Part shown: one piece after another, positions 24,803 to 25,071 of the stretch
Numbering within the stretch: the stretch's first letter is position 1
Layout: each line of letters begins with the position of its first letter
From: Ginglymostoma cirratum
Taxonomy: Eukaryota
DNA: 64,000 nt
Direction: 5' to 3'
Assembly (NCBI GenBank): GCA_024137785.1
Contig: JAHRHZ010000070.1
Location: 13,150,570 to 13,214,569, forward strand
The notes under the pieces: generated by a model
Told to the model about the DNA's origin: nothing
Databases searched by the model: none
The model's input: only the letters and a program-made list of their open reading frames with translations
Translations under genes and position numbers: made by a program

Positions 24803-24894
24803 TTTCTGCCTCGAGTCGCATTAAAAGTCCCTCCATATTTCTTCCGATTAAGGATGAGAGCAGCAATTTCTGGTACGTAGCGAGCAAACATTGC
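24803..24894 (-). CDS. kcnma1: BK/Slo1 mutually exclusive alternative exon 9 (e9alt)
   Basis: catgcatgtag|GCAATGTTTGCTCGC...GGCAGAAA|gtaagt. Same 92-nt length and phase as exon 9; encodes [30 protein letters not shown](K), matching the vertebrate Slo1 e9alt peptide. Confidence 0.93.
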
Positions 24895-24979
24895 CTACAT
24901 GCATGAAACAGAAAAAGAAAATGGCATGCAGAGAGTATTCTACTGCAATAGAGGCAGCAGAGGCCCATGGGATACTTAC

Positions 24980-25071
24980 TTTCTTCCATTAACCGCACTA
25001 TAGGTACCACCATATTTCTTGCGGTTTCCTATTAATTCTATGATTTCAGGGACGTAGCTCGCAAACATGGC
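24980..25071 (-). CDS. kcnma1: BK/Slo1 exon 9 (canonical S6 C-terminus and S6-RCK1 linker)
   Basis: tcttcttag|GCCATGTTTGCGAGC...GGAAGAAA|gtaagt. 92 nt, encodes [30 protein letters not shown](K). Confidence 0.96.

Follow-up and report, generated by a model that had tools for sequence, protein, structure and literature searches.

The tandem exons 9 and 9alt (e9alt) of KCNMA1, the gene of the Slo1/BK alpha subunit, are not new: the pair, the residues that distinguish its members and the physiology of the skate channel have already been published. According to the title of Soom et al. 2008, a mutually exclusive exon gives rise to a neuronal BK channel whose function is altered. In the mouse, exon 9 and e9alt have both been described, the latter having been cloned from the cochlea, and e9alt gives a lower Ca2+ sensitivity and a left shift of about 50 mV at 0 Ca2+ in STREX backgrounds (available text of PMC11758846). 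This is the mammalian Slo1 exon to which a sequence-only reading of the locus studied here had already pointed. In the skate papers, exon 9 is called exon 10 and e9alt is called exon 11. At splice site 2, the BK of skate ampullae invariably includes exon 11, and its single-channel conductance is lower; late embryonic skate BK has exon 10, and mutation of the charged residues toward those of exon 10 gives the skate channel a mouse-like conductance. This account, found in the accessible portion of a 2018 preprint (bioRxiv 10.1101/274449), is a second-hand report of Bellono 2017 and King 2016, and it agrees with the low-conductance electrosensory isoform that the sequence-only reading had named. 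As far as the available parts of these sources go, a splice switch in ampullae or neurons has therefore already been published for both skate and mouse. Drosophila slowpoke offers a more distant parallel: between dSlo1A or A2 and dSlo1B, the residue equal to 323 likewise changes the open time, but the residues themselves are different, namely Thr versus Ile at 337 (excerpts of PMC2292367). KCNMA1 is also cited as a textbook mutually exclusive case in the accessible text of PMC6572816; nothing on e9alt was found in the available parts of that article or of PMC10834251, PMC10486799, PMC11979771, PMC5429088 and bioRxiv 2020.01.27.922161.

The window analysed here, a 64-kb stretch of nurse shark DNA (64,000 nucleotides), contains a gene which, judged by its coding sequence, is the elasmobranch KCNMA1, as had been read from the letters before any comparison. 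The product of exon 8, which matches Pfam Ion_trans_2 with an E value of 5e-14, shows 100% identity to elasmobranch (shark, skate and ray) KCNMA1 and 98% to that of chimaera, gar and coelacanth. Exons 7, 8, 9, 9alt and 10–13 were ordered from 49145 down to 1460 by tblastn and splice-site checks (Table 1), and the numbers of the flanking exons, such as exon 7, were obtained by counting from exon 9. The same combination of tblastn and splice ends bears out the partner sites proposed earlier, 38772 for the end of exon 8 and 14505 for the start of exon 10. The exon 8–13 peptide has exact matches among skates and rays as well as several sharks; exon 9 differs in chimaera and sevengill shark. S0–S4, RCK2 and the Ca2+ bowl fall outside the window. 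The S6/linker region of Slo1 is covered by solved structures; the exon 9 peptide is identical at 28/30 positions to Slo1 313–342 chains in the PDB (E about 1.5e-12), and of the 3 best PDB alignments listed, none contains the e9alt sequence. Among the 16 of 47 long ORFs of the window that were scanned, none had a Pfam match.

Table 1. Exons, the short intron and hexamer motifs of KCNMA1 in the 64-kb window.
Feature	Position	Strand	Length	Remarks
Exon 7	49070..49145	(-)	76 nt	constitutive; S5; placed by tblastn, AG/GT ends
Exon 8	38772..38942	(-)	171 nt	constitutive; pore helix, selectivity filter, start of S6
Exon 9	24980..25071	(-)	92 nt	end of S6 and S6-RCK1 linker, Slo1 residues 313-343; S317, E321, I323, E324, G327
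Intron between exon 9 and e9alt	24895..24979	(-)	85 nt	GT-AG
TGCATG motif 1	24930-24925	(-)		in the 85-nt intron, -36..-31 from the e9alt acceptor
TGCATG motif 2	24903-24898	(-)		in the 85-nt intron, -9..-4 from the e9alt acceptor
Exon 9alt (e9alt)	24803..24894	(-)	92 nt
TGCATG motif 3	24555-24550	(-)		about 250 nt past the e9alt donor
Exon 10	14395..14505	(-)	111 nt	constitutive; start of RCK1
Exon 11	9529..9634	(-)	106 nt	constitutive
Exon 12	6464..6546	(-)	83 nt	constitutive
Exon 13	1460..1529	(-)	70 nt	constitutive

From the sequence of the locus, it is very probable that exon 9 and e9alt form a pair spliced one at a time and that the e9alt channel would have a lower conductance and altered gating. 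The pair matches the mammalian one in gene, in site (the end of S6 and the linker) and in its tandem arrangement. Each exon has an AG acceptor and a GTAAGT donor in the same phase, which upholds the coordinates, ends and spacing of the two homologous exons as originally reported. They share 62/92 nt and differ at 30/92, and their peptides are identical at 22/30 residues when full codons are counted. In a six-frame scan of the window with the exon 9 peptide, run without gaps and scored with BLOSUM62 (mean -34.7, SD 11.5), exon 9 itself scored 154, e9alt 111 and the best other position 20; since nothing else exceeds 20, the likeness of the two exons is not due to chance, and the same scan revealed no third copy within the 64 kb. 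The signals of e9alt are intact: it has a strong donor (8/9 consensus) and an AG acceptor with a pyrimidine tract, and it lacks a stop. The in-frame reading of each exon spans only 31 codons, bounded by TAG at the acceptor and TAA at the donor, and this explains why both are overlooked by lists of open reading frames, as had been remarked of the original list. An ORF of 121 aa at 24663-25028 was set aside because its reading is off-frame.

The alignment with skate isoforms proposed in the sequence-only reading leaves no protein-level difference between little skate BK and nurse shark in this region, e9alt being identical to Leucoraja P0012 and exon 9 to Leucoraja P0032 (P numbers denote proteins fetched for comparison). 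In P0054 of Amblyraja, the Arg and Ala of e9alt fall at 340 and 347, reportedly the numbers used in the skate study. Relative to exon 9, e9alt carries the changes S317R, I323A, E324A, G327L, Y336F, S337N, V339T and N340R, and the net charge rises from +2 to +5. The earlier assignment of Arg and Ala to the two acidic positions 321 and 324 has to be corrected: Arg replaces S317, Ala replaces E324, and E321 is kept. At positions 317/321/323/324/327, the vertebrate segments compared (n=231) fall into R-E-A-A-L (143) and S-E-I-E-G (88), with no mixtures; they come from 218 of the 228 fetched proteins, and the ratio of the classes is biased because one of the searches targeted e9alt. E321 is retained in all 143 segments of the e9alt type, and nurse shark e9alt has the class residues R317, A323, A324 and L327 as well as E321.

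Use of e9alt would replace the inner end of S6 and the S6-RCK1 linker. In the available text of PMC3105516, the eight glutamates of the E321/E324 ring are described as doubling the outward current by attracting K+. Judging from the published mutants, E324A would halve this ring while Arg317 would be added one turn away, leaving less K+ at the inner mouth; with four glutamates lost and four arginines placed nearby, the conductance should fall. A lower conductance was also what the sequence-only reading had expected, in agreement with the ring mutants (PMC3105516) and the skate account (10.1101/274449), as far as the accessible parts of both reach. Gating would be affected as well. The mean open time of mSlo I323A is 0.20 ms compared with 1.2 ms (excerpts of PMC2292367), from which shorter openings are predicted for a channel with Ala323. 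The changes in the e9alt linker would, in addition, shift the voltage and Ca2+ dependence.

The reading frame is preserved by either exon singly, and lost with the full pair or with neither. Both the path 8-9-10-11-12-13 and the path 8-9alt-10-11-12-13 are open over 211 codons, and among 120 fetched proteins, the exon 9 path is found exactly in 33 and the e9alt path in 10, these being annotated shark or ray isoforms. If both exons are included, the earliest stop codon starts at nt 6 of exon 10; if neither is, it starts at nt 79, so the frameshift foreseen for both cases does occur. Both stops are followed, well downstream, by further exon junctions; by an established rule, this exposes a transcript to nonsense-mediated decay, and mRNAs with two exons or none would therefore be expected to be removed. 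A query with exon 8 is blind to the choice between exon 9 and e9alt, and the proteins found in this way (n=120) comprise 75 with exon 9 only, 34 with e9alt only, 1 with both and 10 with no matching segment. Exactly one of the two exons is thus present in 109 of the 110 segment-bearing proteins, all of them annotations from other species. Both isoforms are annotated in six elasmobranchs: Leucoraja erinacea, Amblyraja radiata, Chiloscyllium plagiosum, C. punctatum, Scyliorhinus canicula and S. torazame.

Frame and decay together are the best-supported layer enforcing the choice, and steric exclusion is a possible second one. The intron between them, a short one of 85 nt, may likewise impede the joining of exon 9 to e9alt. 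Steric exclusion applies where the branch point lies within about 50 nt of the donor of the first exon; the candidate branch adenosines at nt 31–58 of the intron straddle this limit, and none of them fits the consensus at the usual distance. A literature search for a steric mechanism acting on this exon pair turned up a general review.

A donor inside exon 9 could make the two exons less than strictly exclusive: 78 nt of that exon would be fused in frame with e9alt, and the linker would become 26 residues longer. Such a join appears in 13 of the 228 proteins (P0010 and P0121-P0132, from birds, teleosts, a snake and a vole), and the GT it requires exists in the window, after 24994 on the (-) strand, with 5/9 consensus, the same value as the real exon 8 donor. 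Its use is nevertheless highly unlikely. A Val codon makes that GT obligatory, a stronger donor (8/9) lies 14 nt downstream, and the join is seen in no elasmobranch isoform among those fetched. The names of most of the 13 entries (hypothetical, unnamed or generic) are typical of automated gene prediction, and these models, in which the opening 26 codons of exon 9 run straight into e9alt, are probable artefacts. Another alternative is that e9alt is a silent or decaying duplicate in the nurse shark, as might be suspected from the many ray isoforms that carry exon 9 only. This is most improbable, given that its peptide is unchanged with respect to skates, carpet sharks and frogs despite the 30/92 nt that separate it from exon 9, and given the state of its donor, acceptor and frame noted above. 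Intact signals and orthology point instead to e9alt being used in the nurse shark.

There is hardly more to be said for e9alt as an adaptation specific to the electroreceptors of cartilaginous fishes, and the label "electroreceptor-type" initially given to the exon was overstated. It is the form used by skate ampullary BK, according to the accessible text of bioRxiv 10.1101/274449, and it is present in the Leucoraja clone P0012 and in the Scyliorhinus retifer entry P0019. However, the exon is not limited to electroreceptive lineages. The nurse shark e9alt peptide is identical in 15/228 fetched proteins, among them the Leucoraja clone and Xenopus laevis, and the same 30 residues are also found in Pelobates. 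A variant with one changed residue occurs in 104 segments, mostly from birds, turtles, alligator and lizard, and versions with the same five key residues are present in gar, bowfin, teleosts (carp), sturgeon, cobra, lamprey and vole. Xenopus is not electroreceptive (available text of PMC5429088), and in the mouse, the exon is expressed in the cochlea (PMC11758846, accessible part). Sharks, moreover, are reported in excerpts of PMC11057056 to use Shaker-type channels instead of BK in their electrosensory cells, so an ampullary role of BK is not assured in this species. On these comparisons, an electroreceptor-specific origin of e9alt is refuted by the non-electroreceptive tetrapods, and only a preferential ampullary use would remain. 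As read from the sequences, exon 9 and e9alt go back to an old duplication in vertebrates, which skate ampullae have put to use and which is not an invention of electroreceptors.

The rodent e9alt (Microtus, P0132) has the same R317, E321, A323, A324 and L327 but is different at 5/30 residues, all in the linker half, where shark, frog and bird differ at 0–1; this one sequence is a hint that e9alt may be changing faster in mammals. Exon 8 shows peculiarities of its own in some of the fetched models. P0001 (Petromyzon) contains two identical copies of the pore-coding exon 8 region, probably a duplication of the assembly or the model. Two unnamed proteins, P0003 and P0004, contain diverged tandem copies of the same region, which suggests that alternative pore exons may exist in some other lineages.

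The nurse shark adds one more elasmobranch genome in which splice choice would tune BK conductance and gating, and the finding opens no new question beyond which factor controls the choice of exon. A candidate is offered by the hexamer TGCATG, which is present 23 times in the window and twice within the 85-nt intron, where one copy sits directly at the e9alt acceptor. Two copies within 85 nt are found in 103 of 63,915 windows of that size, a count that includes the e9alt cluster itself and concerns a motif picked after the cluster had been seen. UGCAUG is the RBFOX motif, and RBFOX has been linked to another Kcnma1 exon (available text of PMC12221596). A tentative reading, which we consider rather unlikely on the motifs at hand, is that RBFOX blocks e9alt and favours exon 9, and that cells with ribbon synapses, such as ampullary electroreceptors and hair cells, escape the block and obtain the low-conductance BK. 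If true, it would identify what controls a conductance switch that is already known. Against such a block, e9alt is called neuronal in mammals, yet neurons are rich in RBFOX. Binding of RBFOX upstream of a short exon can also enhance its inclusion (PMC12221596, accessible part), and the direction of its effect at e9alt is uncertain. Titles and the beginnings of abstracts in the literature searched gave no instance of RBFOX control of exon 9 or e9alt.

The window contains further features. A 30-bp minisatellite with 14.7 copies and 81% matches occupies 4978-5421, between exons 12 and 13. At 56887-57191, a gap of 100 N (56960-57059) is bordered by an inverted copy of 73 nt, which is perfect, and a direct copy of 47 nt, and the region looks like an assembly join. 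Dispersed intronic repeats with 68–86% identity, located at 3006-4302, 13008-13221, 55221-55898, 45904-46416, 49353-50173 and 63310-63866, are likely old transposon fragments.
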